This document shows positions 7,110 to 63,010 of a DNA stretch of 64,000 nucleotides, piece by piece. This DNA comes from an uncultured delta proteobacterium. Lineage in GTDB: Bacteria > Desulfobacterota > Zymogenia > Zymogenales > Zymogenaceae. The notes under the pieces are model-generated. The model saw only the letters and a list, made by a program, of their open reading frames with translations, had not been told where the DNA came from and did not search any database. The stretch lies in the NCBI GenBank assembly GCA_963735595.1, contig CAVTLK010000002.1:672001-736000 (forward strand), read 5' to 3'. Both the position numbers and the translations under genes were made by a program. Every line of letters begins with the position of its first letter. Position 1 is the stretch's first letter.

Positions 7110-7176
7110 GCGATTCGAAAGGGACCGTGCCCGTCCGGGGTTTCCCAGCGAAGACGAATAAAGCCGAAAAATTACT

Positions 7177-7204
7177 AAAGCCGCCCGGAAGGTGGGCGGC
7201 TTTA
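7177..7204. terminator. Rho-independent terminator
   Basis: AAAGCCGCCC-ggaaggt-GGGCGGCTTT. Confidence 0.75.
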
Positions 7205-7245
7205 TCGTCTGTTTTACCTGATAATCCAGGGCCACGGGGACCCGG

Positions 7246-7572: not shown

Positions 7573-7667
7573 GGGTTGGCTCCTGGCAGACAATTATGAA
7601 TTGATTGAAATACCTTGTCAAAGGAAAAGAATTGACAGGGGAACAGAAAAGCGGGAATGATAGTCCC

Positions 7668-11980: not shown

Positions 11981-12037
11981 ATATGATCCTCCTACGGTGA
12001 CACCGCACCGGGCGCGCGGAGGCCGGTGCGGGAAAAA

Positions 12038-16974: not shown

Positions 16975-17072
16975 GGAAGTGGATAGGTCACTGGTGGGCC
17001 TCCCGGACTTCAAATCCGGTGATGGGCGCTAATAACGTCCATGGTGGGTTCGATTCCCATGCACTTCCGCCA
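16975..17072 (+). tRNA. selC: tRNA-Sec (anticodon UCA)
   Basis: GGAAGTG...CACTTCC-GCCA acceptor, CCGGA-CTTCAAA-TCCGG anticodon arm, long variable arm, GGTTCGATTCC. Confidence 0.93.
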
Positions 17073-42352: not shown

Positions 42353-42417
<65 letters not shown>

Positions 42418-42429
<12 letters not shown>

Positions 42430-42470
42430 GCATAATCAAGGACTTACGTGAAAGCGTGGGTCCTTTTTTT
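42418..42470 (+). repeat. att-like repeat 1: tRNA 3' core + IHF-like site + terminator
   Basis: TCCCCGCTACCA, then AATCAAGGACTTA (matches WATCAANNNNTTR), hairpin, T-run. Confidence 0.9.
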
Positions 42471-42499
42471 GTATTTGTCCTATAGCTATAGGTTCAAAA

Positions 42500-42700
42500 T
42501 CAGTACTATTTCGAGTTTAAGTAAGCGAAGCTCTTGACAGTGAAGTGGCGGCGGGAGTATAACACCATCAGGCCGCATAGTTCCCTTGGTTACCATCCAC
42601 CGGCTCCCGGAACCATACTCCCGTGGCATTTGGAAGTTCAACATACAACCTAAGCCTATGGACTAATCTAAACAGTGGTGCCGTTAGCGGGGGTAGGTCA
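42500..42700 (+). mobile_element. IS3-family 3' remnant with right IR
   Basis: Encodes KWRREYNTIRPHSSLGYHPPAP (IS3 transposase C-terminus); ends ...GGGGGTAGGTCA. Confidence 0.8.
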
Positions 42701-42773
42701 CTTTGCCGGAAGATTATAATCCTTTAAACTTTATAATTTTGTTTTTTCCATTATTCCATGACAAGGAGCTATT

Positions 42774-44274
42774 ATGGAGAAGACCCGATGCCTGATAAAA
42801 GTTGACGCAGGCGCAGTTCTTGGATCCTGTCGACCCACGAATTTACGGCCAGAATATAGAACACATGGGCAGGCAGGTTCTGGGAGGCCTTATTGCAGAA
42901 ACGGGATCGGCGGCCCCTCAGGATGGCGACAATTTCCGGCTTGACGTCCTGGAATCGATCAAAAGCCTGAATCCGTCTCTGCTGAGATGGCCCGGAGGCT
43001 GTTTCGCCGATTCATATCGCTGGAAAGACGGCGTCGGAGCGAACCGCCCCACAGTAAAAAACCGCATGTGGGGCAGATTCCTTGCACAGCATTTCTTCGG
43101 CAATCCCCCTTTTCCTGTCGGCCCTGTTGAAGACAATCGCTTCGGAACCGATGAATTCATGAATCTCTGTCGAAAAACCGGCGCCGAGCCAAGCATAACA
43201 GCAAGCCTGGGAGAAGATGATCCTGATGAGGCGTCAGCTTGGATCGGCTATATAAAAGAGAGATACGGAGCGGGAGCCGTTCCCGCTTGGAGCGTCGGGA
43301 ACGAGCAGTGGAATCCCGTAGAGCCGGGAGGCTGCTTCCTAAGGCCTCGTAAATATGTGGAGCGTTTCCACAGGTTCGCTGGAAAAATGAGAGAAGCCGA
43401 CAAGGATATAAAGCTGATCGCATGCGGAGGCGATGTCCTGATTTTCCCGGGCTGGAACAGGGAAATCATAGAGGGAATAGGCGAAAGCATGGACTATCTG
43501 TCCATGCATCTGTATACGCCTGCCGGAATACCCTTTCTTTCTCGTATAAACGCCTCCCCCGAACATTATTATGCTGTCGCTGCATCAGGACTTGCGGTTC
43601 AGGAACAAATCCTATGCATTGAAGATCTTGCTGAGAAACTTATCGGCAAATCAATCCCCGTTTCTTTTGATGAATGGAACATTCTCGGACCTCTTCGCAG
43701 TTTCATCAATCCGTGGCGCTCAATGAGGGAAGCCATAGGCGCAGCAGGAATCATCCACGTGTTTCACCGTCATGCCAACTATGTGAAGATAGCCGCAATG
43801 TTCGCAATGCTCAACGCAGCAAGCCCTCCCATCATAACGACAAGAGACGCCGTCATACTCGCTCCGGTTTTCCATATTCTGAAGCTTTACAGAGAGTTTA
43901 CGGGAAAATTCAGCGTACGCAGCGAAACGGCATGTCCGTCAATCGACATTCCCAAACTCATTAACCTGCCTGAGCGCAAGTCGTTTCCTCTTCTGGACGC
44001 CAGCGCCTCGATAGACGGCAATCGTCTGACCGTGTTCGTAATAAACCGCGACCATGCAGCAAGCCATGAGGCGGAGCTCGAAATATCAGGAGCCGGTTTT
44101 TCAGGAACGGCTGAAATCCACACGGTGGCGGCGTCGGGATATCTTTCTCAAAATTCTGAGAACCGGCCGGAAACAGTCTGCGAAAAAACTGAAGAAGTCG
44201 AACTGAAAGGGATCCTTTCATTTCACCCCTGTTCGGTAACCGCGATTGTAATGAAAAAAACGGAAACGAAGTGA
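42774..44274 (+). CDS. GH51 alpha-L-arabinofuranosidase (apparent frameshift near 42830)
   Basis: IYGQNIEH, LRWPGGCFAD, FGTDEF, GNE, FDEWN; RBS AAGGAG before ATG 42774. Confidence 0.85.
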
Positions 44275-44478
44275 CCTGCCCCCCGAAAATGACCTGTCCC
44301 CTGAGAACGAGTCCGTGTTGAGAGTTAGACCCGGGGTCCGGATCAGGGTCATTTAAGATTTACGACAAACTTTAGCGATTTCAGAGCTATCTCCTCTGTA
44401 GGTTTTCCTTTTTCACAAGATTGTGTCCCCGCTACCAGAATAATCAAGGACTTACGTGAAAGCGTGGGTCCTTTTTTT
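44272..44478 (+). mobile_element. Tandem IS3-type left IR + conserved arm + att-like repeat 2
   Basis: TGACCTGCCCCCCG at 44272 and TGACCTGTCCCC at 44290; core at 44426-44437; near-identical to 49101-49290. Confidence 0.8.
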
Positions 44479-44972
44479 ATGCTCCACATGGATATATACA
44501 GAGGCCACGGGAGGGTTCGTGCGCATGCCGAAATCATCGGGGTTTCGGTAAAGCAGTCTGCGGCTGGCTTAATTCAAGGGATAGCTACCCATCGAGAGAC
44601 TCCGGCCGGGGTTGAGGAGCTGCCGACAGCAGCATTACGGTATGTCATCTTAGAGGAACCGTGAGAAAGGGCGGTGACGGGAGGTGTCCCCATATCTTTG
44701 AATTAAAAAACTTGACGAAATAGCGATACATAGAGTATAAAGCCATAAATTCTTATCGTATTTCTAATGATTGTCCATGCGCCCGCCCATTGCGTATGAC
44801 GATTCAGGAAATGACAAGACACACTCGATCAGGACGCCTCGAATTGAGACCGGATTATCCGAGAGTGGGGATAGGCTGGTTTTGAAGATGTAAATTGGGG
44901 AGCTACGGACTGATTTGTTATAGGCGTTAAAAAGATATCTTAAACGCATAAAACGTCAAGAGGAAAGCGAAC

Positions 44973-45647
44973 ATGGAAGTGTTTCTTGATTTCTTCAATA
45001 TATTTAGCAGGTACATACCCTTTTTCCTGAAAGCGAGTCTCCTGACGGTCGAGATCTCGGCGCTTTCTATTGTTATTGGATTCTTTTTAGGTCTCTTTGC
45101 TGCCCTTGGAAAGATGTCCCATAACAGGCTGATACGCTGGCCGTCCCGTTTCTATGTCTGGTTTTTTCGCGCTACCCCGCTCCTCGTGCAGATCTTCCTC
45201 ATTTATTTCGGTCTTCCCCAGTTTGGCATTAACCTCAGCCCTTTCGTAGCCGGCGTTATGGCTATGAGCATCAATGCGGGGGCCTATTATTCGGAAATCA
45301 TCCGTGCGGGCATCCAATCGATTCATCAAGGCCAAATGGAAGCGGCCCGATCACTCGGAATGAGCTACAGCCTGGCTATGCGCCGCATTATTCTTCCTCA
45401 GGCCCTCAAGGTTGTTATCCCCCCGTTTGGAAACGAATCGATTATTCTCATAAAGGATACTTCTCTCTTATCGACAATAACCATCGTGGAGATCACGCTC
45501 ATGGCACAGCGACTGATAAGCTCAACGTGGAGACCCTTCGAGCTGTATCTTGTGGCCGCCGCCTACTATGCTATGATTACCTCGGTATTGAACTATGTCC
45601 TGAACCGATACGAGAAAAAGCTTGATGTGTCTCAAAGAAAAGGATAA
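44973..45647 (+). CDS. Polar amino-acid ABC transporter permease
   Basis: FRATPLLVQ, EAARSLGM, IKDTSL. Confidence 0.92.
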   Translation: MEVFLDFFNIFSRYIPFFLKASLLTVEISALSIVIGFFLGLFAALGKMSHNRLIRWPSRFYVWFFRATPLLVQIFLIYFGLPQFGINLSPFVAGVMAMSINAGAYYSEIIRAGIQSIHQGQMEAARSLGMSYSLAMRRIILPQALKVVIPPFGNESIILIKDTSLLSTITIVEITLMAQRLISSTWRPFELYLVAAAYYAMITSVLNYVLNRYEKKLDVSQRKG

Positions 45648-45689
45648 TATGACTAAAAGAGTCTTAATACACTTGCGGAGGTTTTCACA

Positions 45690-46454
45690 ATGAAGAAGTT
45701 TTCAGTGCTCATCTTAGCGTTTCTTCTTCTTTTTGCCTTTTCCTGCACTACGGAGAAGGGCGATACGCTCGATAAGATCAAGGAACAGGGATTCATCACA
45801 ATCGCGGTAACCGCCGGTAGCCCCCCTTTCAGTTTCGTGGATGAAAAGACTGGGCTGGAAATAGGGTTCGATGTTGATTACGCTACCGAGGTTGCCAAGC
45901 GCCTCGGGGTGGAGCCTAAAATAATTATGGTGGAATGGGATGGGATACTTCCCGGGCTTCTGGCCGGGAAATACGATATCATAATCGGGAGTATGGCGAT
46001 CACCGATGAGAGGAAGCTGCAGGCTAATTTCACCCGTCCCTATTATTCATCGGGCGCCCAGCTTATCGTCAGGGCCGATGATACCTCGATCAACGGCATC
46101 GAAAACCTCGAAGGCAAGTCGGTCGGCGTAACCATCGGCACGACCTACGAGGAGAAGGCCAAAGAGATCCCCGGCTGTATCGTCAAGACATACAAAACCG
46201 AAATGGATGAGCTCCTTGACCTGAAAAACGGCAACATCGACGCCGTCATTACGGACCGATACATCGGCGCGTATACCATTAAGGAATCGGGACTTCCCCT
46301 CAAACTCGCGGGAGATCTCATCTACAAAGAAGATGAGGGAATCCCGATCAGGAAAGAAGATGCTAAGCTTCTGGATGCGGTAGATAAGGCTGTTGAGGAG
46401 ATTACTAACGACGGCACGTTTAAGACCCTGAGCGGAAAGTGGTTTGGTATCTAA
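45690..46454 (+). CDS. Polar amino-acid ABC substrate-binding lipoprotein
   Basis: Lipobox-like AFSC, PPFSF, GFDVD, IT.ERK..NFT.PY. Confidence 0.9.
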   Translation: MKKFSVLILAFLLLFAFSCTTEKGDTLDKIKEQGFITIAVTAGSPPFSFVDEKTGLEIGFDVDYATEVAKRLGVEPKIIMVEWDGILPGLLAGKYDIIIGSMAITDERKLQANFTRPYYSSGAQLIVRADDTSINGIENLEGKSVGVTIGTTYEEKAKEIPGCIVKTYKTEMDELLDLKNGNIDAVITDRYIGAYTIKESGLPLKLAGDLIYKEDEGIPIRKEDAKLLDAVDKAVEEITNDGTFKTLSGKWFGI

Positions 46455-46533
46455 GAACTAGGCAAGTATTCTACGAATACCCAAAGGGGAGGGAGACGAT
46501 TATCCCTCCCCTTAAGCATGGAGAAACAGATCT

Positions 46534-47304
46534 ATGTCTTCCCTCCGGAAAAAAGACAAAATCATAGATGTGAGGGGGTTGAGAAAAGACTTTGGTAAGC
46601 TTCACGTCCTTAAAGGGGTTGACGCAAGTATCACAAAGGGCGAGGTCCTGGTCATTATCGGCCCCTCGGGTTCAGGGAAGAGCACCTTCTTGCGCTGCTT
46701 GAACATGCTCGATATGCCGACCGGGGGCGATATATTTCTCGACGGGGTCAAGGTAAACGACCATTCCCTTTCGAAGAAGGATTTCCAGCGACATATTAAT
46801 GGAATCCGAGCCAGAATGGGTATGGTTTTCCAGCAGTTCAATCTGTTCCCCCATATGACTGCCCTCGGAAACGTGACCGAAGCCCCTATTCGCGTTCTCA
46901 ATATCCCAAGCGACAAGGCAACCTCTATGGCCCAGGATCTCCTCAAGAAGGTCGGTCTTCAGGATAAAGCCGACGTTTACCCCGAGTCGCTTTCCGGCGG
47001 CCAGAAACAACGGGTGGCCATTGCACGTGCGCTCGCCATGAATCCCGAGGTAATGCTCTTTGACGAGGTGACATCCGCTCTCGATCCGGAGTTGGTAGGG
47101 GATGTTCTCAAGGTTATGAAGAACCTAGCCAAAGATGGGATGACCATGATCGTTGTAACCCATGAAATGGGTTTTGCCCGGGAAGTGGGAGATTGGCTTA
47201 TCTTTATGGATGAAGGGGTGATCATGGAAGAGGGCAAGCCCCGGGAGATATTGGCAAACCCACGTAATGAGAGAACCAAAAAATTTCTCAAAGAAGTGTT
47301 ATAG
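46534..47304 (+). CDS. Polar amino-acid ABC ATPase (GlnQ-like)
   Basis: [27 protein letters not shown]. Confidence 0.93.
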
Positions 47305-47341
47305 ATACGGTTAACCTATTATCCCATTATTCCCGTTTCTG

Positions 47342-47644
47342 AGGTCATAGGTTCGAATTCTATCCCCGCTACCAGCATAATCAAGGACTTACGTGAAAGC
47401 GTGGGTCTTTTTTTGTATTTGTCCTATAGCTATAGGTTCAAAATCAGTACTATTTCGAGTTTAAGTAAGCGAAGCTCTTGACAGTGAAGTGGCGGCGGGA
47501 GTATAACACCATCAGGCCGCATAGTTCCCATGGTTACCATCCACCGGCTCCCGGAACCATACTCCCGTGGCCTTTGGAAGTTCAACATACAACCTAAGCC
47601 TATGGACTAATCTAAACAGTGGTGCCGTTAATGGGGGCAGGTCA
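47342..47644 (+). repeat. ~303-bp near-identical copy of 42397-42700 (tRNA 3' half, terminator, IS3 remnant, right IR)
   Basis: Direct comparison shows only a handful of differences. Confidence 0.92.
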
Positions 47645-47770
47645 GTACTCTTGATATCACTTTCTTTTCTAAAATCCCGTAACCGCGGGCGAATATTTCT
47701 CGGGAATGACATCCCTTGTATCGCGGCTGACGTGTAGGGAATTCAAACAGTCGAAGAGAGGGGAATATCG

Positions 47771-48949
47771 ATGAATCCAACTGAGCGAGTTATTGCTGCT
47801 ATTGAAGGAAGAGTACTGGATCGGGTGCCGACTTTCTGTCCTTTCCTTGACCCATGGCCGGTGCAGCAGGTTCTCGGGAAGCCAATCCTGTCGGATAAGA
47901 TTGTTTTCCTCAATCCTCTTACCCGTTTCATTCTTGATCACTGGGGCCCCTCGCTTAAAAAAGCCATTTCCGATCCCGCCCTCGAAAAGCTCAACCTCAA
48001 GCAGATCGAAGCCGCACGTCGAATCGGACTAGATTCGATATGGGGCCTATACGACATCAGAAACATCGTCAAAGATTCCAAGACGTTTATCGTGAGCCCG
48101 GGCTTCTACTACGACATCATTCAGGACGGTCACGGCAACCTGACCTACATGTACCGAGGTCCAGCTATTTCATCCGAGAAAGAGTTCGATGAGTGGCCCT
48201 ATCTTCATAATAACGACGAAATGGCCCATTCCTGTTTCCTCTTTTTCAAGAAGGCAATGCCGCTTTATGGTGATAAAATATGCGTCATTGGAGAGGTCTC
48301 GGGCGGTATCCAGGAGGTGCTTTTTCACCTCCTTGGGTTTGAGAAGTTCTCGCTTTTCATCAGGAAAGAGCCGCGCTTCATACAGCGGCTTATCGGCTTC
48401 TTCGAGGAATACAAGATGAAGGGGTACATGGCCATGATGGACGCGGGAGTCAAGGTTATTATGGCCGGAGACGATTTCGCTTTTAAATCGGGCCCCATTC
48501 TCAATCCAAGGATCATTGACGAGCTCTTCGGCCCCCCGTACACCCGCCTCACCCGGACCGTTCACGATCGAGGTGGGAAGATCCTGCTCCACTCGTGCGG
48601 TGACAACACGGTTCTCTTCGATCTCTTCATCAAGTGGGGTTTCGACGGCGCTCATGCCTATGAAAACACGTCAAACGTTGACATCTATCGAGAAAAAGAG
48701 GTTCATGGAGACCGATTCTCTATCGTTGGCGGTCCCGGGGTTGACTACTTGCTCACGGAACGCTCAACGGCCGCGGAGGTGGCCGATGCAACAAGATACA
48801 TGATCGATCGTCTTGCACCGGGAGGGCGGTTTATACTGAGTCCGGTACACGCCCACGGAGAAATGGACATGAGCAAGGTCAGGGTTATGATCGAAACCGC
48901 GCGGGAATATGGTCTGGGAAAACCGCAGGCCTGTAAGACGGCGGAGTGA
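47771..48949 (+). CDS. Uroporphyrinogen decarboxylase (URO-D/MtaA-like) family protein
   Basis: ERV.AA.....DRVP, GDD.AFKSGP, LHSCG, PGGRFIL. Confidence 0.8.
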   Translation: MNPTERVIAAIEGRVLDRVPTFCPFLDPWPVQQVLGKPILSDKIVFLNPLTRFILDHWGPSLKKAISDPALEKLNLKQIEAARRIGLDSIWGLYDIRNIVKDSKTFIVSPGFYYDIIQDGHGNLTYMYRGPAISSEKEFDEWPYLHNNDEMAHSCFLFFKKAMPLYGDKICVIGEVSGGIQEVLFHLLGFEKFSLFIRKEPRFIQRLIGFFEEYKMKGYMAMMDAGVKVIMAGDDFAFKSGPILNPRIIDELFGPPYTRLTRTVHDRGGKILLHSCGDNTVLFDLFIKWGFDGAHAYENTSNVDIYREKEVHGDRFSIVGGPGVDYLLTERSTAAEVADATRYMIDRLAPGGRFILSPVHAHGEMDMSKVRVMIETAREYGLGKPQACKTAE

Positions 48950-49100
48950 GCCGTCACCGAGACTTATCGAAGATAGGCCCCACTCCGGCTAGGATAGAAT
49001 ATGGGTAACCAAAGGGGGTTGATTCTATCAGGATGACTGTAAGGGACCCCCAGGGAAGCCTGACCGAGTACCTGACGATATTTCTATATCTAACCTACTT

Positions 49101-49290
49101 TGACCTGCCCCCCGAGAACGAGTCCGTGTTGAGAGTTAGACCTGGGGCCCGTATCAGGGTCATTTAAAGATTTACGACAAACTTTAGCGATTTCGGAGCT
49201 ATTTCCTCTATTGGGTTTCCTTTTTGACGGTAGCGTGTCCCCGCTACCAGAATAATCAAGGACTTACGCAGAAGCGTGGGTCCTTTTTTT
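49101..49290 (+). mobile_element. IS3-type left IR + conserved arm + att-like repeat 4
   Basis: TGACCTGCCCCCCGAGAACGAGTCC...; core 49238-49249. Confidence 0.8.
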
Positions 49291-49317
49291 ATTGATGAAC
49301 CACAGTACCCTGATATC

Positions 49318-49710
49318 TTATGTATCGAGCCAGTCTAAGGCCTCGGGGAGCGTGTTGAAGTTTTCCATCTGCGTATCGGACTCCCTGCCGACCCTGCCGG
49401 AGGCCAGTGTCTGTATCGGCTGATCGGTGACGGTGGCCGATTTCCTTACCCCTTTGTTCTTAGACAATTCCTGGGCCTTGATGAATGCCTCCATGATCGA
49501 CTGCGGCGGTACCTTGAAGTCCCGTACATCGATGAGGCTGCTAAAGCCGGGGCTCATTCTTGACAGCAATCTCTCCACATCGGCAAGATACCCCCTTTTG
49601 AATTCCTCCCTATCGGGCCAGAAACCTCGGAATACGACATAGGTCCTGTTGACCACCGTATCGGCCTCTATCGTATAGAATTCGTTGTCCGCTATCAACT
49701 CTCGTGCCAT
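49318..49710 (-). CDS. Hypothetical protein (STAS/SEC14-like)
   Basis: 130 aa; GFW...LIDVR.FK...F....EA..WL pattern; AGGAGG RBS. Confidence 0.6.
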   Translation of the reverse strand: MARELIADNEFYTIEADTVVNRTYVVFRGFWPDREEFKRGYLADVERLLSRMSPGFSSLIDVRDFKVPPQSIMEAFIKAQELSKNKGVRKSATVTDQPIQTLASGRVGRESDTQMENFNTLPEALDWLDT

Positions 49711-49883
49711 CTTAGCCTCCTTGCGTATGCTCTGTTGTTTTACACCGTGTATCAATTATAAGATAATGTCTGGATTAGACAACCGTTTGATTTTTCATCA
49801 GCGTAACGATCACACCATTACCTGTCACGATGAGAAATAACCCATCATTTTTCGTATTTTTCGTCAGTGACGACGTTTATTCC

Positions 49884-49938
49884 TGTCCCCGCCGGCAACG
49901 AACTCAAGAACTCACACGAAAGCGTGGGTTCCTTTTTT
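49884..49938 (+). repeat. Degenerate att-like repeat 5
   Basis: TGTCCCCGCCGGCA...CTCAAGAACTCACACGAAAGCGTGGGTTCCTTTTTT. Confidence 0.65.
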
Positions 49939-49993
49939 GGGGCGGTCGATCGGATCAGGGAGGGGGGGGACGGAATTCAATCCGCAAAATAAA

Positions 49994-50021
49994 CGGGAGG
50001 CGGCTATAGGCCGCCTCCCGT
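49994..50021. terminator. Hairpin downstream of the aldo/keto reductase
   Basis: ACGGGAGGCGGC-tata-GGCCGCCTCCCGT. Confidence 0.55.
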
Positions 50022-50287
50022 CATCTCCGTATTGTCGGAACCACCCTGTTTAAAACTCATGTGCGTATTGACCCAGCGGTAGATCGGTCCCCGGTGCTCC
50101 CGCCCCGTCTTTACGGTCGTTCCGGGGCGTCACGGTCGTCCGACCTGCCTCTCGAAAGCACGTCCCTGCCAGGGACGGGAGCGCCCGTATAATGACGGGG
50201 GTCAGGTACGCGTACCGTGGGCTTCGGCCTATCACGGAAGGCTATACTTGAATGCGGCGCACGAGTTACATGCTTACCCCTAACCCT

Positions 50288-51307
<1,020 letters not shown>

Positions 51308-51532
51308 TCAGGATCAAAGCGATTTATAACCTTTGCTCACCTCTATTTTCCGCTTTGTTAAGAGATAGTTTACCCCTGAAAAAACGAAGGAGATAGACCG
51401 ATCCTGTTAGTTTCTTGCCTAATCCTCCGAGTACCTCAATAAATGGGTTGTATGGGGGGGTGGTATCTAGTACTATTTACCAGAAGACATCAATGGGTGG
51501 GAACATGGCTCGGGTATTCGAGAGGAAGTTAG

Positions 51533-52435
51533 ATGGAAGCGGCACTTGAAGCTTTGGGAAAGGGCATAGCCCGATGGACCGACAGGGCCGACATATTCGA
51601 GACCGCGGTCCCGGGCTTGTCGCTATTTCGATGGGACGAACCGACCGAGCCCATGAGCAGCATGTACGTGGCGAGCATCTGCGTGATTGCCCAGGGGGCC
51701 AAACGCGTGTTACTCGGGGAGGACTCATATATCTACGGCGCACACCGCTATCTGGTGACGTCCGTGGATCTGCCAACGGTCGCTCAGGTTATCAAGGCGA
51801 GCCGGGAGAAGCCCTGCCTGGGGTTTACGCTGAGACTCGATCAACGGGAAATTTCACAGCTGATGGTGGACAGCAAGCTTCCCCCGCCGCGTGCCCGGCA
51901 GTCGGACCGCGGAATGGCGACCGGGGAGGTCACGCTGCCGTTGCTGGCCGCGTTTCAGCGGTTGATCGACCTGCTTTCCGAACCAAGAGATATCCCGATC
52001 CTTGCGCCGATCATCCAGCGGGAGATTTTCTACCGGTTGCTCGTGGGCGATCAGGGTACCCGTCTACGACAGATTGCGTCGGCGGGAAGTCAGAGCCAGC
52101 AGATCGCGCGGGCAATCGATTGGCTGAAGGACAACTTCGCACGGCCGCTGCGTATCGATGATCTGGCTAATCACGTCAATATGAGCACCTCAACCTTCCA
52201 CCATCATTTCCGGGCGTTGACGGCCATGAGCCCGTTACAGTACCAAAAGTGGCTGCGTTTAAACGAGGCGCGACGGCTGATGCTCGCCGAGCGCCTGGAC
52301 GCTACAAGCGCTGCGCTTCAGGTAGGATACGAAAGCCCATCCCAGTTCAGCCGCGAGTATAGCCGCCAATTCGGGGCGCCGCCGTCGCGCGACATTATGA
52401 GCCTCAATCAAATTACCGTCGGTGAAATGGTTTAG
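51533..52435 (+). CDS. AraC family regulator (AraC_N/YqhC-like)
   Basis: QGAKRV, MSPLQYQK..RL, VGYESPSQFSREY. Confidence 0.92.
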   Translation: MEAALEALGKGIARWTDRADIFETAVPGLSLFRWDEPTEPMSSMYVASICVIAQGAKRVLLGEDSYIYGAHRYLVTSVDLPTVAQVIKASREKPCLGFTLRLDQREISQLMVDSKLPPPRARQSDRGMATGEVTLPLLAAFQRLIDLLSEPRDIPILAPIIQREIFYRLLVGDQGTRLRQIASAGSQSQQIARAIDWLKDNFARPLRIDDLANHVNMSTSTFHHHFRALTAMSPLQYQKWLRLNEARRLMLAERLDATSAALQVGYESPSQFSREYSRQFGAPPSRDIMSLNQITVGEMV

Positions 52436-52444
52436 ATTCGCCTG

Positions 52445-52796
52445 TCAGGGTCATTTGAGTTTCATCGAGAACCCGACCGGGGGGGGCAGGTCATCATCTA
52501 TTCCTTTCGATTGAATCCTATCCCCGCTACCAGTAAAACCAAGGACTTACGCAAAAGCGTGGGTCCTTTTTTTGTGAGTGACCTAAAGTTATTTTGGGGT
52601 TTACCGATTAAATGGCGCGGTGTTAATTGTTGACAGAAAAGTGTCGAAGAGAGTATAAGATGACTAGGACGCACAGTTCTCTTAACTACAATCCCCCGGC
52701 TCCTGAAACCATACTTCCCCGGTCTTCGGGAGCTCAAAAAGGAGCGTATGCCTATGGAATAACTCAAACACTGTTACAGTTCTCGGGAGCAGGTCA
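52445..52796 (+). mobile_element. Composite junction: arm fragment, IS3 IR, att-like repeat 6, diverged IS3 3' remnant with right IR
   Basis: TCAGGGTCATTT; GGGGGGCAGGTCA (ends 52493); GAATCCTATCCCCGCTACCA (52513-52532); CRREYKMTRTHSSLNYNPPAPET; ...GGGAGCAGGTCA (ends 52796). Confidence 0.78.
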
Positions 52797-52879
52797 ATCG
52801 TTTTCATGTAACTTCACGCTTGACAGGAGCCAATAAGTACTATCGGGTGTTTCACACGACATTTATAGTGGGGAATAGC

Positions 52880-52996
52880 ATGAAAAAGAACTTTATCCTC
52901 TTTTTGTCTATGTCACTTGTTGTTGTGTGTGCTCTCTCATCTATCGCAGCGCACGCGATACTAACTCTTGACAACGTCTCATATTTAATAGTATAA
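52880..52996 (+). pseudogene. Signal-peptide-only ORF, probable truncated gene
   Basis: MKKNFILFLSMSLVVVCALSSIAAHA... 38 aa with RBS. Confidence 0.4.
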
Positions 52997-53300
52997 AAAA
53001 GCGTCAAGGATCAAAGTACGTTCCGGTGGCGTGGGGCAACGGCCTTGCCTGCCGGCCGTTACACAAGGCCCCTGTTATGACGGACTGTCCTTATTCAATC
53101 GGCTGTAACCGATGGGAAGGCGACTTCGAATTCCCATTTGGCCAGTAATGCATAGGTGCTTTCGCCGTAAAATAGTACGAAGGGGCACTTAAGCACGTTT
53201 GCCGGTCTTCCGGATACGGGAGTGAAACGTGAGCCGATGGGCTCACGTGAAAACCGGTTCTCTTGATCGGGATAGACACTATCGAGTGAGAGGAAATCAG

Positions 53301-54131
53301 ATGAAAGACAAACCGGAACTCCTTTACCTGGAGCTACTGAAAAAGACGCTCACATTTACCCTGTGGCCCGAGCCGCCGATACCGATCACGGCTATACGGC
53401 ACAAATATAATCCTGTCAACTGGTTCTTTGTTACCGCTATCGCGAAGCTGCTGAAGCTTGGAAAACTCCAGATCGTCAAAGACCGCGGTTATTCGGAAGA
53501 AATGAGAACGGACGGGGGAATATGGCCGGTCTATGCCGATACCATGATTGGGATGAAGCGCCTCGATAACATCCAGTACTGCGTTGAAACCGTGATCAAG
53601 GATGGAGTCCAGGGGGACTTCATCGAGACGGGCGTCTGGAGGGGCGGCGCATGTATTTTAATGCGTGCCATACTCAAGGTCCGCGGTGTTGAGAACCGTA
53701 GGGTATTCGTTGCCGATTCTTTTGCGGGACTGCCGAAGCCGGACGCCGTAAAATACCCCGCCGACAGGGGGGATAAACACCACACTCGAAGCTTCCTCAC
53801 CGTAACAAAGAAAGACGTCGAAAACAATTTCAAGAAGTACGGTCTATTAGACAAGCAGGTCGTTTTCCTTAAAGGGTGGTTCAAGGATACCCTTCCGAAG
53901 GCGCCCATCAAGAAGCTTTCAATACTCCGTCTCGACGGCGATATGTATGGCTCGACTATGGAGGCCCTGGAGATCCTCTATCCGAAGCTGTCAAAGGGCG
54001 GTTTTTGCGTTATCGATGATTACGCCTTACGGGGCTGTAGAATGGCGGTGGATGACTACCGGTCTAAATATAATATAAAAGAGGAAATCAAGTCTATCGA
54101 CTGGACCGGCAGATACTGGAGAAAAAACTAG
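53301..54131 (+). CDS. TylF/MycF/NovP-family O-methyltransferase
   Basis: TMIG.KRL, ETGVWRGG, DSF.GLP, GWFKDTL, RLDGDMY. Confidence 0.9.
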   Translation: MKDKPELLYLELLKKTLTFTLWPEPPIPITAIRHKYNPVNWFFVTAIAKLLKLGKLQIVKDRGYSEEMRTDGGIWPVYADTMIGMKRLDNIQYCVETVIKDGVQGDFIETGVWRGGACILMRAILKVRGVENRRVFVADSFAGLPKPDAVKYPADRGDKHHTRSFLTVTKKDVENNFKKYGLLDKQVVFLKGWFKDTLPKAPIKKLSILRLDGDMYGSTMEALEILYPKLSKGGFCVIDDYALRGCRMAVDDYRSKYNIKEEIKSIDWTGRYWRKN

Positions 54132-54374
54132 CGGGTACGATTACTAGAGAGGGTTTTTCTTTTCTCGAGGGTGTCGCAGATTCAGTTGAAACCGGGCGAC
54201 GGTACAGCTTCTCATATTACGCTACCTGTTTCGCATTTTCAACATAAGGATCATCTTCAAGGGCGGATTTAAGTATCCGGAGGTCCCGGTACCCGCTGAT
54301 CCGCCGAAAGCTCTTCTCCACCGCGAGAGTTCCCGGAGCCCCGAGATTCTTCCGTTGAAGTGCTTATCCGCTCC

Positions 54375-55250
54375 TTATCTGGCTAATTCCCTGAGCAATT
54401 CCCGCGACGTATCGATAATAGTCTGGTTGCGAATAATCTGTTCCCTTTTCTTCTTGGACAGCACGCCCAGCAGTTTGCCTATCTTCAGGAAGAACAGCTT
54501 TCGCCGGGCGTTACCGATCTTTTTCCGGACGATAAATTCTATCTGGTCTTTCGTATAGTGTTTTTTATAAAAGACCTGCTTTCCCCGCTGCCTTCTCAGC
54601 CGGACTTCCCTGGAAGGCAATGTTGCGGAGCTGACGCCGCCGATATGGTCAACGGTGACGTCCCGATACCATGATACAACGAGTCCCTGCTTTCTGATTC
54701 GTAATGCGAGATCGGTCTCCTCGGCATATAAGAAATAATCCTCGTCAAAGCCGCCGACGTTTTTATAGACATCGTACGGTATCATCATGCAGGAACCGCT
54801 TATCCACGCGATTTCGCCCGGCAGGTTCTTAATCATGTGGCCCGGGTGGATTTCGCCGGGGTAATCATAGTGCGGCACCAACTCTTTCCCGTCGTGGGCT
54901 ACCGAAGGCCCCATCAGCCCGCATTCAGGGTGGCTTTCCATGAAATTGACCATCCGGCGCAGGGCGTCGTCGCTCCGCAGCTCAATATCGGGATTGGATA
55001 CCAGTATAAAGCGGCCTTTCGCACTCCGAAACCCTAAATTACAGCCGCGGCCGTAACCGAGGTTTTCATCGCTGGAAACCAGCTTCCCCGGGAAGGCCGT
55101 TTTCTTCAGGACCTCAATGCTATTGTCCGTGCTGGCGTTATCGACGACGATAATCTCGAAGGTAACGTCCTTTTGCCTCAGCACCGAATTTATACACGGT
55201 ACGATGACGTCCGCCGAATTGTAGCTGACGATTACTACACTTACGTCCAT
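54375..55250 (-). CDS. GT2 glycosyltransferase (WbbL-like)
   Basis: VVDNASTD, NPD, GFDEDYFLYAEE.D. Confidence 0.9.
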   Translation of the reverse strand: MDVSVVIVSYNSADVIVPCINSVLRQKDVTFEIIVVDNASTDNSIEVLKKTAFPGKLVSSDENLGYGRGCNLGFRSAKGRFILVSNPDIELRSDDALRRMVNFMESHPECGLMGPSVAHDGKELVPHYDYPGEIHPGHMIKNLPGEIAWISGSCMMIPYDVYKNVGGFDEDYFLYAEETDLALRIRKQGLVVSWYRDVTVDHIGGVSSATLPSREVRLRRQRGKQVFYKKHYTKDQIEFIVRKKIGNARRKLFFLKIGKLLGVLSKKKREQIIRNQTIIDTSRELLRELAR

Positions 55251-55283
55251 TATATTATAAACCTCTCAACAGGGACTTGTTTT

Positions 55284-55297
55284 GGGGGGGCAGGTCA
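55284..55297 (+). mobile_element. Isolated IS3-type IR
   Basis: GGGGGGGCAGGTCA. Confidence 0.55.
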
Positions 55298-55313
55298 ATA
55301 GATAGATAAGGGA

Positions 55314-55481
55314 TTAAATGCCATCCAGCAGTGGGGAATCTTTATCGGTTAAAGGATCAACCGCAAACTTGTATTTCGCCTTTATTCTGAAGAAATTCTT
55401 ACCGCCGGATATCCCGATTTCAAGGTAAGTACGAGCATTTACCGCGCCGACTATTTTCTGGATCAAATCCGACCTTTTCAT
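55314..55481 (-). pseudogene. N-terminal fragment of class I SAM methyltransferase
   Basis: MKRSDLIQ...YLEIGISGGKNF...VDP, stops after 55 aa next to the IR. Confidence 0.6.
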
Positions 55482-55687
55482 TACTCCCCCTTTCGGTTGT
55501 AGTTGAGGGTCTGGGAACGCTTGATGGAATGAGAGGTTGAGATTGAATCAATCCTGATCTCGTAATTATGCGTTTCAACAAGCCAACAATAGGGCATTTT
55601 TACGAATTGTATTGAGAATGTCGATTTATCTCCGAACCGGCCCGACTGTTCCCTCACGGCTGGTATCGTCAAAAGAAAAAGGCCGCG

Positions 55688-56287
55688 CTAAACCTCGCCA
55701 TTTTCGACCGCGCGCAGGAAGGTTTGAGTATCGGTACTCAGCATAAAAGGGATAGCCCTGCCAATTCGTTCGTCATCCCAATCCCACCAGCGTATCTTCA
55801 GAAGTCGATCGACTATTTTTCTTTCGAACCGCATCTTAACGATTCGTGCCGGATTACCAGCAACGATGGCATAGGGGGGGACGTTGCGGGTTACAACAGC
55901 CCGCGCGCCCACGACCGCCCCGTCGCCGATGCGCACTCCGGACAAGATGATCGCTTCCGCACCGATCCAGACGTCGTTGCCGATAATAACGTCACCCTTG
56001 GACGCCGGGTGACCGGAGATATGACGGTAGTCCCCCCAAATGAAATTAAAAGGAAAAGTCGTTATCCAGTCAGTGCGATGCTCTCCTCCGACGAAAACCT
56101 GAACACCCCGTGCTATCGAACAAAACGATCCTAACTCGAACATACCATCAGTCGCCGCAGAGCGTCTAATCCGCAAGTCGCCGTAGGACCATCTGCCAAT
56201 ACTGTAACGTGCGGAGTATCTCTCATGTACAGTCTTCCGTTTCTTCTTGAACGGATTCCGAGTTATCTTTTCCAGAAGGTCCTTCAT
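55688..56287 (-). CDS. CatB/Vat-like hexapeptide O-acetyltransferase
   Basis: IGNDVWIG, GV.IGDGA, GNPAR, WWDW. Confidence 0.88.
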   Translation of the reverse strand: MKDLLEKITRNPFKKKRKTVHERYSARYSIGRWSYGDLRIRRSAATDGMFELGSFCSIARGVQVFVGGEHRTDWITTFPFNFIWGDYRHISGHPASKGDVIIGNDVWIGAEAIILSGVRIGDGAVVGARAVVTRNVPPYAIVAGNPARIVKMRFERKIVDRLLKIRWWDWDDERIGRAIPFMLSTDTQTFLRAVENGEV

Positions 56288-56386
56288 ATCGTACTTTTCC
56301 TAAAATAAACTAATATCCGGGTACGTATCACGGGGTACCTCTCGAAAGAGTCACCTCTAAGATATGGGGACGAGTACCAGTACCTG

Positions 56387-57553
56387 TTACGTAGAGAGAA
56401 CCCGCTCGTATATCTCCTGGAACATCCTGGCGTTTTCGATTTTGGTGTATTGCGTATAGACTTTCCGGGAAACAGCCAAGGCCTTTATCCGGGCTTTCTC
56501 CGGGAAATAGCATGACACGGCCGCCGCCATAGCTTCGTGATCTCTCGGATCGTCGAGCACCCGTCCCATTATTTTGGATTTAACGAACACGGACGCACCG
56601 GCGTTCCTGGTCGTTACTACCGGAAGCCCCGACGCTATTGCCTCAAGGATGACGTTGCCGAAAGTATCGTAAAACGTCGGCAGGAGAAAGATATCCGCGG
56701 CGGCGTACAGTGGTACGATGTCTTCTACGTAGCTCATAAATACAACGCGGTTCGAAACACCGAGGCGTTCGGCTTCCTTCCGGTATGGACGATCGTCGTC
56801 CCTGCCTGCGATAACCAGCCGAAACGGTTTCTTGACCCGTCTCTCGAGGAGCGGCAACATGCGGATTGCGGGAAATACACCCTTGAGCCGGTAGTTGTTG
56901 GTCGCGGTCAGGATCATGATCTCGTCTTCGGCAAGACCCAGCTTTGCCCGCGCCGATTCGCGGTAACGGTCGCGGTTTTGGGGTTTGAACCGTGCGATGT
57001 CGATACCGTTGTAAATAACCTGGATGCGGTCGGCTTTAACACCGTGAAACCGCATAATATCGTTTTTAACCTTGTCGCTGTGGGAGACAATAGCCCTGAC
57101 TCCCGAATCCCGGTACTGCTGCCTCTGGAGTGAGAGGATGAGTTGCCTGCGCGGGGATAGGAACCTGACGATACGGCCACAGAGCCGGGCCGGTACCGAC
57201 TCGCGGGACTTGTCGTCTGCATCAAACCAAGCCTGTTCGACGCCTGTATGGGAATTAAGCACCGTTACTCCCGGATTATGCCCGAGACCGTGGACGATGT
57301 CGTAATCCTCTTTCTTGACGTGTTTCTTGATCCCCCGCACAAACGTCAGGAGTCTCAGGAACTTGGGATGGCCGATCGTCGGGATTTCGTGAACGACGAT
57401 GTCCTTATGTGAGGAGCTACCGCGACGGCAGAAGACGTGCAGCTCGTGGCCGTCGTCCGTAAGGCTTTCCGCTAAATACTGAGTATACCGCTCAACGCCC
57501 CCCGACCGGGGGTCGAATTTATCGATAATCAGGGCTATCTTCAGTTTCTTCAT
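56387..57553 (-). CDS. GT4 glycosyltransferase (WaaG-like)
   Basis: GGVERY, IYNGID, KG, D.FG...LEA.ASGLPV. Confidence 0.88.
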   Translation of the reverse strand: MKKLKIALIIDKFDPRSGGVERYTQYLAESLTDDGHELHVFCRRGSSSHKDIVVHEIPTIGHPKFLRLLTFVRGIKKHVKKEDYDIVHGLGHNPGVTVLNSHTGVEQAWFDADDKSRESVPARLCGRIVRFLSPRRQLILSLQRQQYRDSGVRAIVSHSDKVKNDIMRFHGVKADRIQVIYNGIDIARFKPQNRDRYRESARAKLGLAEDEIMILTATNNYRLKGVFPAIRMLPLLERRVKKPFRLVIAGRDDDRPYRKEAERLGVSNRVVFMSYVEDIVPLYAAADIFLLPTFYDTFGNVILEAIASGLPVVTTRNAGASVFVKSKIMGRVLDDPRDHEAMAAAVSCYFPEKARIKALAVSRKVYTQYTKIENARMFQEIYERVLST

Positions 57554-57853
57554 ACTGTCCTGGTATCCTCGTGCCGGGTAGTGCCGGCAGCGTAATACCC
57601 AACACCACGTATTTGTTTCCCGCCGGACCGATGGCGGCCGGGTCCGCGACCTCCGACGTTGGCGGGAGCGCGGGCGCCGGTTTTGCCTAACCACGTAACC
57701 GTATCATTTTTCGGCCGGGGCGAATTCGACTCTCAAATACAACAGGTTGATTAAAGAGTACCTCAGCAGGTGTTTAAAAGCAAGACGTTTTCCTGGACCT
57801 CGGCTTACCTCTCTTTTCGGCTGGTAAAGCCGCACCTGGTAGTTGAACCTGCG

Positions 57854-58804
57854 CTACACGTTGTCGTTCGTCCTCTGCACATAGAAGCATGCCTGATCAC
57901 CGTTGCGGTTATTATTTAAGACTGTTGCCATCTTGACGTAACGGTTTATTTCATTTCTTGAGAAATCTGATCGCTTTAGTTTTTTTAAAGGTATACCTTT
58001 CTTATAGCCTTCGCTACCCAAGAACTGAAATCTGGAGGAATCATATACGACATATTTCTCATGAAGGTTACATTTCTTTAAAAGCAATCTAAAGCTTTCC
58101 AATGTATGTAAAAAAAGATGCCTCGGAGCATCTATTTGTACCCAGTTTTCCCTATAATGATGCCATGCGTATGAAGACGCTATCGGTATGCGAATGAGCG
58201 CGTATGCATTGGGTGATAATAAATCATATATCTTGTTTAAAACCCTTTCCGGTTGGGGCATATGTTCAAAAGAATGACTTAAGACTATTAAATCATATGT
58301 ACAATCCTGTATGTCGAAGATTTCTTTTTTATAGATATTGATATCTTTATACTTAATATCATTGTCAATAAAGGGATCGACACCAGTTAAATCAGTAAAG
58401 CCGGAGTCAAGCAATTTTTTTAGCAGGCGACCTGAACCGCAACCCACATCTAATACTCTCATGGAAAAATCTATGTCAATTTTCTCTAACCACGTTACAT
58501 GCTCGGGCTTTTTCATTCCTAAGGACAGTATCCTACTAAGTATGGTACGTTTATCTAACCAGTATTTAGACATGTGTCGAAGGCGGAGTTTTTTCCATTT
58601 TGAGCGTTCAGCCTTAACTTTAAACGAGCAGTAGTTATCCGGGTAGTACTTCGACAAATCATGAGGTATACTTGCCAGCTGCAAGCATCCACAGTTTGAA
58701 CATTCAAGATATTCAAATTCGTCCTTGGTCCCGAAGTGCATCTCTTTGACAACGTAAGTACTATTATTTTGCTTGTTTCCACATATATTACACCGAATCT
58801 CCAT
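57854..58804 (-). CDS. Class I SAM methyltransferase with N-terminal Zn-binding motif, AT-rich
   Basis: CNIC...CSNCG, VLDVGCGSG, HSFEH, PRHL. Confidence 0.85.
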   Translation of the reverse strand: MEIRCNICGNKQNNSTYVVKEMHFGTKDEFEYLECSNCGCLQLASIPHDLSKYYPDNYCSFKVKAERSKWKKLRLRHMSKYWLDKRTILSRILSLGMKKPEHVTWLEKIDIDFSMRVLDVGCGSGRLLKKLLDSGFTDLTGVDPFIDNDIKYKDINIYKKEIFDIQDCTYDLIVLSHSFEHMPQPERVLNKIYDLLSPNAYALIRIPIASSYAWHHYRENWVQIDAPRHLFLHTLESFRLLLKKCNLHEKYVVYDSSRFQFLGSEGYKKGIPLKKLKRSDFSRNEINRYVKMATVLNNNRNGDQACFYVQRTNDNV

Positions 58805-59080
58805 TTGAACCTCGCGAAAGACTACTCAAACTATATAATAAGTGCTTAGAAGCGTGATCCATAGAGGTGCTTGTGGTTTTCAGAAACAAATAGTCGGGAA
58901 GCTATCCGGCATATAGCTTAAACCTAACAAAAATTTAATGGCAAAACTGTCTCATATACTACTGCATAAGGCTCGCTTTTTCAAGATGAAAATAGGCATC
59001 CGGGCCGGACCGAGGAATCCAGGAATGAGAGAACCGCTGTTCAGTCGATAGGGCGGTATAATGCAAACTACGCGTGCCTG

Positions 59081-59262
59081 AGACCTGTCCCCCGAAAATG
59101 AGCCCATGTTAGAAGCAGGACCCCGGCACAATGCCGGAGTTATTTATTGACGACGAACGTGATAAAGGGGTCTCTCCTCAACTGCTTGTCTTTTCTACAC
59201 GTAACATGTCCCCGCTACCGGCATCATCAGGGACTCACGCAAAGGCGTGAGTCCTTTATTTT
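59081..59262 (+). mobile_element. Diverged left IR + arm + att-like repeat 7
   Basis: GACCTGTCCCCCGAAAATGAGCCCATGTT; core TCCCCGCTACCG 59209-59220; GGACTCACG/CGTGAGTCC hairpin. Confidence 0.75.
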
Positions 59263-60585: not shown

Positions 60586-60749
60586 ACGCGCGGTACGTAG
60601 AATTGTCGCGGTATCGCGGCATCGGGTATTTTACTCAGGATCATACGGTTTCCGAAACCATACTCGCCGGGTTTTAGAATAGGGCTCACAAGAGCTGAGC
60701 CTATGGCTAACCCGGATATCGTACCGCTCCCGGCGCGGGTAAGTGCACA

Positions 60750-62621: not shown

Positions 62622-62670
62622 GGCATTGACGAGCAGCCACTTCCCTGAAAACTGCTATTGAAGCTTGCAG

Positions 62671-62863
62671 TGATCCGTTCCCCCTGCAAATGCGTCCCTA
62701 TCAGGAATAAGCCCACAACACAATGCGCGGGGGGTCATTTGAGGTTCGCGATAAGGTCGTCGGCTTCGGCATTATCTCGTTAAAGATGTTTCCTTCTTGG
62801 CCGAATCATGTCCCCGCAACCGGCATAATCAAGGACTCACGCATGAGCGTGAGTCCTTGATTT
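62671..62863 (+). mobile_element. Diverged left IR + arm + att-like repeat 8 (array end)
   Basis: TGATCCGTTCCCCC; GGGTCATTTGAG; core TCCCCGCAACCG 62811-62822; AATCAAGGACTCACG hairpin. Confidence 0.7.
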
Positions 62864-63010
62864 ATAGGTGACGTACGGGCCGCAATATGATACCGTAGCG
62901 CGGGCGGAAAACGTCTCCCGGGTCTAAACCTCACAACTCCTTGAAAAACACGCTCCGGCAGCTTATGCCATCCGGATGAACCGGCATACGCCTGCCGATC
63001 AATATAAACG

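Follow-up and report, generated by a model that had tools for sequence, protein, structure and literature searches.

Cassette arrays that lack an integrase are common behind tRNA genes, and the route by which genes get packed between their att sites is, to our knowledge, usually not known. Ordered and variable arrays of cassettes, with one to a few genes in each, are also the hallmark of integrons, together with IntI and attC. Other described systems share further features with the locus reported here. In CIMEs and tandem accretion arrays, attL and attR are kept, the integrase and transfer genes have been lost, and the elements are stacked at the 3′ end of the target gene (PMC5704250). For the translocatable units and pseudo-compound transposons of IS26, circles of one insertion sequence (IS) plus adjacent DNA, arrays, a lack of target duplication and docking at the end of a resident IS have been described (PMC7986276). 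IS911 and IS150 are copy-out/paste-in elements of the IS3 family (PMC9330008, PMC11708052), while in MITEs, transporter IS and TMos (ISEcp1 and ISPme1) non-autonomous ends are used in trans and neighboring genes are captured, the passengers being located within the outer ends (PMC9330008).

The locus analysed here comprises 11 repeats of a core and a terminator, placed 3′ of a tRNA-Met(CAT) gene (42353-42429, forward strand) in an uncultured bacterium from sediment; eight of them lie inside the 64-kb stretch of DNA that was studied (the window) and repeats 9 to 11 lie past its end, so that the repeated units noticed in an initial annotation form an array larger than it had stated. The tRNA, presumably the initiator tRNA from its known features, anchors the array, since the shared core is the 3′ end of the gene (42419-42429), and it was the sole match in an Rfam scan of the locus. 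Every core is followed by a conserved spacer and an intrinsic-terminator hairpin (42430-42472 after the tRNA, forward strand), an element-borne att arm; the terminator is part of the downstream unit and the unit proper therefore extends from core to core. The five terminator hairpins that were folded each scored better than all of their 200 shuffles (z from -4.3 to -9.5). The att-type nature of the repeats, which had been proposed from their layout, is supported by a phage contig in which a tRNA-Met end and the same spacer and hairpin adjoin a PF00589 tyrosine integrase. The hairpins were also considered as attC sites or CRISPR repeats, and both were rejected: T runs follow them, they show G-U pairing, and they match the phage att arm. 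Most cassettes are devoid of IS ends; among the 35 cores examined, eight are preceded by a left inverted repeat (IR) and seven are directly followed by a fused remnant (several of these cores being seeds of the profile). The order of the cassettes and their neighbors change at the cores among the G000, G001, G002, G003, and G005 genomes.

Genuine IS3-family ends flank three units, namely A (42419-44426), C (47364-49238), and the diverged F (52522-59209), and in all of them the IR tips point toward the cargo. The left bracket of unit A (42523-42700) consists of the terminal 178 bp of an element of the IS3 family, a transposase C-terminal remnant with a match to rve_3 that is 73–81% alike to the intact IS copies L060, L062, and L070 and ends in a right IR (42660-42700). 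Its cargo (42701-44271) holds the tail of a small upstream ORF and a gene for a GH51-type alpha-L-arabinofuranosidase (42774-44274), whose stop codon comes from the IR tip. Two left IRs follow: an 18-bp stump of the original one (44272-44289) and a full copy (44290-44330) which, joined to an arm of about 95 bp, constitutes the right bracket (44290-44426). Unit B (44427-47341) is composed of core, terminator, and an amino-acid ABC transporter (44973-45647, 45690-46454, and 46534-47304), has no IS ends, and is also found behind a different att in a metagenome contig. After a long (33 bp) copy of the tRNA 3′ end with its terminator (47342-47415), unit C presents a left bracket (47467-47644) made of an IS remnant and a right IR (47604-47644), a cargo (47645-49100) with a gene of the URO-D family (47771-48949), and a right bracket (49101-49290) made of a left IR (49101-49141), arm, core (49239-49249), and terminator; all these features of A to C are on the forward strand.

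Two units without IS ends lie between C and F (49291-52521). The first, which reaches the core at 49887, holds a reverse-strand ORF of 145 aa belonging to no known family (49318-49755), and the second an aldo/keto reductase (50288-51286, reverse strand) and an AraC regulator (51533-52435, forward strand). An IR-like motif at 52482-52493, inside an att arm, is probably a motif of the arm rather than an IS end. In unit F, a left bracket with core, terminator, diverged IS remnant (52625-52796), and right IR (52522-52796, forward strand) precedes a cargo (52797-59080) encoding a TylF methyltransferase, a GT2, a hexapeptide acetyltransferase, a GT4, and a methyltransferase, with an additional, inverted left IR (55258-55297) immediately before the GT2 start; the right bracket (59081-59262, forward strand) contains a diverged left IR (59081-59121), arm, core (59210), and terminator. 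Another GT2 glycosyltransferase gene (60750-62621) is probably enclosed by a fourth bracketed unit, older and decayed (60600-62866, forward strand), in which a weak remnant, a degenerate left IR near 62672, an arm (62721-62811), a core (62812), and a hairpin can be discerned; its homologue in G001 sits after a clearer remnant (E 1.8e-16). The cargo proteins are members of known families. Every part of the layout that the initial annotation had named, twice nearly exact and once diverged, was found at its place.

The assignment of the ends to the IS3 family was confirmed by their terminal IRs, which are imperfect, measure about 40 bp, start with TG and end with CA, and by their matches to intact copies; within this family, they presumably belong to the IS407 group. 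Such copies with these IRs, whose existence had been anticipated, occur in metagenomes and measure, from IR to IR, 1265 bp (L060) and 1264 bp (L065); the OrfB of L060 scores 234.8 on NCBIfam NF033516 (cut-off 160) and its OrfA matches HTH_Tnp_1. With respect to the intact copies, the right IRs of the window are identical at 32–35 of 41 positions and the left IRs at 28–33. The two IR types are indeed imperfect inverted repeats of each other, as had been noticed, but their similarity is low, with only 22–24 of 41 positions identical without gaps (19 of 41 in the intact IS). The IR motif was observed 11 times in the window, where shuffling predicts 0.66, and nine of these copies are within 42689-59092. 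The units of the window retain about 50 C-terminal transposase codons and have no transposase gene of their own.

The geometry of the brackets is fixed. The distance from left IR to core is 129–138 bp in seven right brackets and that from core to right IR is 274–281 bp in five left brackets (both in G000, G001, and G005), across two genera and around unrelated cargos. Brackets are kept while the cargo changes: between A and C, the left brackets are 98% alike and the right ones 88% alike, whereas the genes, of the GH51 type and of the URO-D family, are unrelated. The left bracket of F is 68–69% alike to those of A and C. Between lineages, left brackets are 66–87% alike, so the fusion of IS and att predates the capture in unit A, and the brackets appear to be old and reused. 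Units A and C show three fixed differences in their left brackets, all of them within the outermost 14 bp of the right IR (a probability of about 0.002 by chance, for an interval picked after seeing the data); this hints that the tip was brought in together with the cargo and docked on a bracket already in place. The remnant also contains a putative outward promoter with a perfect -35 box, yet the promoter scan made no call. By a crude rule applied at selected loci, the ORFs downstream of 50 right-IR tips were co-oriented in 28 cases, opposite in 10, and absent in 12. That such a promoter might drive the cargo is a weak idea. Among the sequencing runs listed as containing this DNA, none is of RNA.

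The source of a cargo could be compared in the case of unit A. In the relative G002, the 1571-bp cargo is found at 97.8% identity in a tRNA-Thr islet with no IS match within 19 kb. Its homology with G000 begins at the base immediately following the right-IR tip and stops at the first base of the tip of the left IR. An ORF of 50 codons spanning the left cargo boundary is whole in G002 and truncated by the right-IR tip in the window, and the arabinofuranosidase gene of G002 has its own TAA stop. As judged from this comparison, which concerns one cargo, the two cuts that removed the DNA from its source coincide exactly with the IR tips, the limits foreseen in the initial annotation. For the cargos of C and F, and for those searched in G001, G003, and G005, distant homologues and no close donor were found. 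A second tip-bounded event is seen in contigs from two of the four runs, which depart from the window after 44289, at the very edge of the second left IR. A right-IR tip in G005 is likewise the starting point of an acetyltransferase-like C-terminal fragment of 40 residues. No target duplication, which would measure 3–4 bp for the IS3 family, was detected across the cargo when a shared repeat was sought at both cargo edges in eight units. This is expected after deletion or exchange, and the missing duplication does not tell the loading routes apart.

The breakpoints of unit A at the IR tips, along with brackets older than the capture, point to an explanation that we consider probable as a whole: cassettes without an integrase, each bounded by att sites, would be arrayed in tandem behind tRNA-Met, where IS ends fused to att arms load cargo and an integrase supplied in trans probably stacks the cassettes. 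In one cassette lineage, both att arms are joined to IS3-family ends whose tips face the cargo. As the comparison shows for one cargo, DNA from another locus is cut at IS tips and comes to lie between the right and left IRs. The cutting may be performed by a cognate IS3 transposase acting in trans, either through insertion followed by adjacent deletion or through an exchange between an incoming IS end and a resident IR; adjacent deletion or exchange at an IR explains the product by known reactions. Finally, since the order of cassettes changes at the cores, a visiting phage or island might supply a tyrosine integrase specific for tRNA-Met that excises, moves, and stacks them. Among the loading routes, loading in place or docking on a resident bracket, which fits at least as well as a free IRL-att-IRR mini-element, seems reasonably likely; the mini-element is a possible route of lower probability, and any other is rather improbable.

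The array itself carries no candidate for these enzymes. No integrase was found in any of the five arrays, the four PF00589 matches of G000 being elsewhere; a search for serine recombinases (PF00239) found none, and none of the 28 ORFs scanned was identified as a relaxase. The cognate transposase is absent in 10 genomes of the family, in which 24 of 26 matches are C-terminal scraps. A parent island with these arms was not found in 401 genomes and a viral set. The core and motif pattern matched nine of the 401 genomes, and the five outside the family had no profile match and no recognisable integrase within about 1.5 kb on either side. In the viral set, the IR pattern had no matches, and a single match to the IR-to-core pattern, in a GC-rich phage gene, was dismissed as chance.

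It is important to consider ordinary decay, in which islands accumulate next to the tRNA, composite transposons arise from IS3 copies that insert into them, deletions leave little more than att arms, IS ends, and the useful genes, and the brackets are scars without any repeated role. The locus lacks an intact IS and an integrase, and the formation of CIMEs via decay and accretion is established (PMC5704250). IS150, of the IS3 family, generates adjacent deletions that leave no target duplication (PMC11708052). The same IS ends are found near many other tRNAs of the family as ordinary miniature elements, and IS remnants and miniature copies with varied internal breakpoints occur at many of its tRNA islands; they form once a normal IRL-gene-IRR unit and once, in G005, an inside-out pair without a tRNA att, so IS debris is common at islands here. 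Nonetheless, the identical spacing of seven right and five left brackets in two genera is unexpected from separate events. Moreover, the cargo of unit A has diverged by 2% from its donor, but the left bracket next to it is 98% identical to a bracket around a different gene and has the spacing of brackets that have diverged by 13–31%; the bracket thus preceded the cargo. Decay on its own is in our view unlikely. An IS-excision enhancer was rejected as a cause of decay, as PF22548 is absent from G000.

The full route of the initial annotation, a sub-case of the explanation favoured above, postulates that a free mini-IS of about 420 bp (IRL-att-IRR) transposes beside a gene, a circle is formed, and an integrase delivers it to the tRNA. 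Each unit, circularised at the core, would equal one mini-IS plus neighbor DNA, like a translocatable unit, and att-less miniature copies of 116–306 bp exist. However, the contiguous IRL-arm-core-terminator-remnant-IRR element was not found away from the tRNA array; it was seen as a junction between two units in G001 and, weakly (a 49269-to-42449 joint with a likeness of 85), in one metagenome contig whose context is unknown. A profile search found no arm outside the array in G000, a DNA search of limited reach gave no match outside arrays in 41 genomes, and the confinement of the A/C differences to the tip speaks rather for exchange at a bracket already in place. The proposal that the captured gene is the junction spacer conflicts with the 3–4 bp described for the spacer of IS3 circles (PMC9330008). 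Of that reading, the IS3 ends, the att repeats, and the tip-bounded cargo of unit A are supported, and the free mini-element and the gene as spacer so far are not; taken alone, the complete route is doubtful.

Less likely still is a passive role of the brackets, by which cargo flanked elsewhere by free IS or miniature copies would be exchanged by the homologous recombination machinery of the host, using the remnant (180 bp) and the IR (41 bp) as homology, the transposase not acting on the fused ends. The abundance of free IS ends in the family and the location of the A/C differences in the outer right IR agree with it, but the homology is short, the intact copies found are only 73–82% alike to the remnants, and the 44289/44290 junction is at a tip, outside any homologous tract. 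Collapsed or misjoined repeats are highly improbable: this is a metagenome assembly with one surplus base in the cargo of unit A (near 42822, absent from three of four runs), but the array copies differ among themselves, G003 shares the left junction of unit A, and contigs of separate studies span tRNA, remnant, IR, and cargo (42380-43226 and 42491-44289).

The packing step has left exact footprints at this locus, a gene from another islet with both cuts at att-fused IS tips, and this is suggestive of a device that collects genes with two distinct, borrowed enzymes. If the two-enzyme model is true, DDE transposition and site-specific integration would be united in one non-autonomous element, and the genesis of cassettes would have a testable route, for which an intact cognate transposase has already been found. 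Only tentatively, this could be a dedicated capture system selected in one bacterial family: a heritable, gene-less hybrid site whose IS3 ends cut and load genes and whose tRNA att allows integrases of phages or islands to stack and disseminate them, in effect a factory of cassettes for an array resembling that of an integron.

Compared with integrons, the array is alike, but there is no IntI, no attC was seen, each repeat is made up of the 3′ end of the tRNA and a terminator, and no tyrosine recombinase is present at the locus. We know of no accepted origin for integron cassettes, and here a cassette-making step seems visible. With IS911 and IS150, the units share IR sequences, an OrfB remnant, tip-bounded junctions, and adjacent deletions; they differ in being non-autonomous and in having the ends inside-out around the cargo. 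MITEs and TMos resemble them in the use of IS ends in trans and in gene capture, but carry their passengers inside the outer ends and are not tied to a tRNA att for insertion; att-less miniatures exist here, and no free-standing att-containing copy was found away from the array. The putative circles and docking, the arrays, and the lack of target duplication recall the IS26 units, which require an intact IS6-family element with its passenger. In this case the ends are of the IS3 family, there is no transposase gene, and the tRNA att replaces the IS interior, so that a tyrosine integrase could do the placement. As in CIMEs, att-like sites are kept in units stacked at the 3′ end of the target gene and the integrase gene is absent (no PF00589 or PF00239 in the array). 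The units, however, measure 1–7 kb and form rows of as many as 11, and the att arms of some are joined at a constant distance to IS3 ends, which set the cargo edges, a fusion not described in the account of CIMEs consulted (PMC5704250). The literature search, which covered main texts without supplements and mostly papers outside subscription, found no report of IS ends fused to tRNA att sites. What seems new is the joining of IS3 ends to tRNA att arms; CIME accretion arrays and IS26-type translocatable units are the closest known systems.

The tRNA-Met(CAT) gene at 42353-42429, in a genome assembly of 3.63 Mb and 93% completeness, is followed by 11 copies of its last 11 bases, some in worn form. 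These core copies lie at 42419, 44427, 47364, 49239, 49887, 52522, 59210 and 62812 inside the window, and at about 67187, 69247 and 70705 past its end. Behind every copy stand the same spacer and hairpin; five of five folded hairpins beat all shuffles, and a T-rich run follows four of the five. Each segment between repeats carries from one to five genes of ordinary metabolic or envelope types, and no tyrosine or serine recombinase was found within the array. A phage contig has this spacer and hairpin behind a tRNA-Met 3′ end, adjoining a PF00589 integrase, so the hairpin is element-borne; on sequence grounds, the array repeats are identified as att sites. A selenocysteine tRNA gene is also found in the window, at 16975-17072.

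Similar tRNA-Met arrays are present in three relatives of the same genus (G001, G002 and G003) and in one of another genus (G005), and are absent from five of nine family relatives. Cassette content and order vary between arrays, matching the tandem accretion pattern that PMC5704250 describes for CIMEs. For instance, the genes of unit F (among them TylF, GT2 and GT4) lie ahead of the second URO-D gene in the source genome and behind it in G003, whose array has one additional unit at the front. The ABC transporter unit (B) occurs behind a different att in a single contig (likeness 85, weak), and a reductase/AraC pair is found at other tRNAs too. The latter module was also seen at tRNA-Arg 3′ copies in G003 (L133 and L134, on C2 and C3), twice as inverted pairs. 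In the source genome, tRNA-Thr(CGT), -Pro(GGG), -Phe, -Leu(CAA) and -Arg(TCG) each have one or two downstream 3′-end copies within at most 26 kb; islets are therefore common across this genome. Single outer-membrane beta-barrel-like paralogues occur as cargo in tRNA-Met arrays, and long tandem clusters of them lie at G000:C3 76359-84066 (source genome) and G003:C1 371364-382026.

Some cassettes are bracketed by IS ends, with core, terminator, IS remnant and right IR on the left, left IR and arm on the right, and the IR tips facing the cargo. The geometry is fixed: the left-IR tip lies 137, 138, 129, 133, 134, 137 and 133 bp from the core, and the core 281, 280, 274, 274 and 281 bp from the right-IR tip. 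In five arrays, left IR and arm stand ahead of 8 of 35 cores and the remnant directly after 7 of 35, several of these having seeded the profiles. Apart from the arabinofuranosidase unit (A) and the GT2 unit, both common to more than one genome, the bracketed cargos all differ. Between lineages, left brackets are 66-87% alike and right brackets 55-72% (shuffle control 47%); for unit A against the URO-D family unit C, the values are 98% and 88%, respectively.

A scan of metagenomes with the IR pattern gave 12 loci. Two contain the complete element (1264-1265 bp); in four more, a long transposase frame reaches the right IR. An intact IS3 copy with these IRs, which the initial annotation suggested searching for, exists in metagenomes as the two complete elements, and the OrfB of the 1265-bp copy (L060) passes the IS3 model. 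Right IRs of the window share 32-35 of 41 bases with the metagenome IS copies, full left IRs share 28-33 of 41, and the bracket remnants are 70-82% identical to the final 170-180 bp of the IS. This homology identifies the bracket ends as ends of an IS3 element, presumably of the IS407 group. Clear IS homology extends over ~41 bases of the right bracket; judged by eye, the next ~30 may be a worn IS leader.

A whole-array search located the cargo of unit A at another locus of G002 (97.8% identity over 1572 columns), within a 2.3-kb islet at tRNA-Thr(CGT) where no IS or arm match was found across the 19 kb examined. Homology begins at 42701, the first base past the right-IR tip. It runs as far as 44272; the T at this position opens the left IR and corresponds in G002 to the TAA stop of the cargo gene itself. 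Cargo homology had been predicted to stop at the IR tips, and for this one cargo it does so at both. In one of four runs, a contig likewise departs from the window sequence after 44272 (83 further letters). A 50-codon ORF spanning the left cargo boundary is whole in G002, while only its last codons remain in the source genome and G003; G002 therefore represents the uncut state. Since the cargo differs from its source by 2% and the bracket spacing equals that of brackets 13-31% diverged, loading came after the fusion of IS end and att arm. Weaker support for capture at the tips comes from G005, where an acetyltransferase-like tail begins at a right-IR tip. Close donors for the remaining cargos were searched for and none was found. 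An extra base at 42822, absent in three of four runs, puts the opening of the arabinofuranosidase gene out of frame; an assembly error or a mutation in the strain is its probable origin.

The IR tips have also undergone later events. Unit A ends in the source genome with the 18-bp stump of one left IR and, right behind it, a second left IR; in G003 the sequence diverges after the first left IR, and in two of four runs contigs cease to match the window after 44289. This is most simply explained by a deletion that ran from the tip of the second IR into the first, adjacent deletion from an IR tip being a known IS3-family reaction (PMC11708052). In G001, a right-IR tip directly adjoins an inverted left IR. 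Another inverted left IR (55258-55297), also present in G003, lies 8 bases upstream of the GT2 start codon and may supply a promoter.

The comparisons establish the IS origin of the ends, the att-type repeats, the fixed spacing, the tip-exact edges of cargo A and the order changes between genomes. As for mechanism, a transposase and an integrase would each work in trans. A search of 10 family genomes gave no full cognate transposase, and 24 of the 26 IS transposase matches there span only the last 95 residues or fewer; genomes of this kind often lack assembled IS. The retained C-terminal transposase piece contains a perfect -35 box. An integrase specific to these arms was searched for and none was found. 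Three routes of loading would all lead to the same product. In route (c), a free IS end would cut the donor and then be swapped for the resident end. In route (b), a resident bracket would drop its cargo, its joined ends would insert into the circle formed by an excised islet, and adjacent deletion would trim the product. In route (a), a free IRL-att-IRR element would insert at the donor, circularise with neighbouring DNA and integrate at the tRNA. The initial annotation relied on such a mini-element; none was found away from the arrays by a profile search of the source genome or a DNA search, of limited reach, in 41 genomes. Because no att-bearing copy was found off the arrays and the three fixed differences between units A and C all fall in the right IR, within its outer 14 bp, the evidence leans towards route (c) or (b).

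The same IS ends are found elsewhere on miniature elements (116-306 bp) that lack att and vary in their breakpoints, often directly behind other tRNA ends. A co-oriented tRNA end lies at most 1.2 kb upstream of 15 of 50 scored right-IR tips, at loci picked for IS matches. One transporter-like miniature element (L108, G001:C57 region, 5931-7681), 73 bp behind tRNA-Glu, lacks a transposase; its IS ends, in normal orientation, enclose a passenger gene of 452 aa. In G005 (L114, C4 region, about 4380-5390), an inside-out right IR and left IR without a tRNA att flank a small membrane-protein ORF that extends into the left IR, the whole unit lying between ~70-bp direct repeats unrelated to tRNA. Since these ends often occur without att and the majority of cassettes lack any IS end, the brackets arose from common IS debris at tRNA islands. 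In the G005 tRNA-Met array (L033, C25, about 11027-12296), a short-chain dehydrogenase-like gene lies between two directly repeated miniature copies of 142-143 bp; this pair is a miniature composite. IS remnants or miniature copies also lie right after tRNA ends (Leu, Phe, Pro, Arg and Met) at nine loci from several genera (L101, L102, L106, L109, L113, L115, L119, L125 and L068), some with integrase scraps; these are separate juxtapositions of att and IS ends.

The array phenomenon is real, and what is new at tRNA-Met is loading by IS ends. The literature searched gave no account of inside-out IS ends joined to tRNA att arms. By the features tested, the locus belongs to none of the IS26, MITE and integron kinds. 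Its mode of working resembles that of a CIME array in which loading is by IS26-style translocatable units (PMC7986276).
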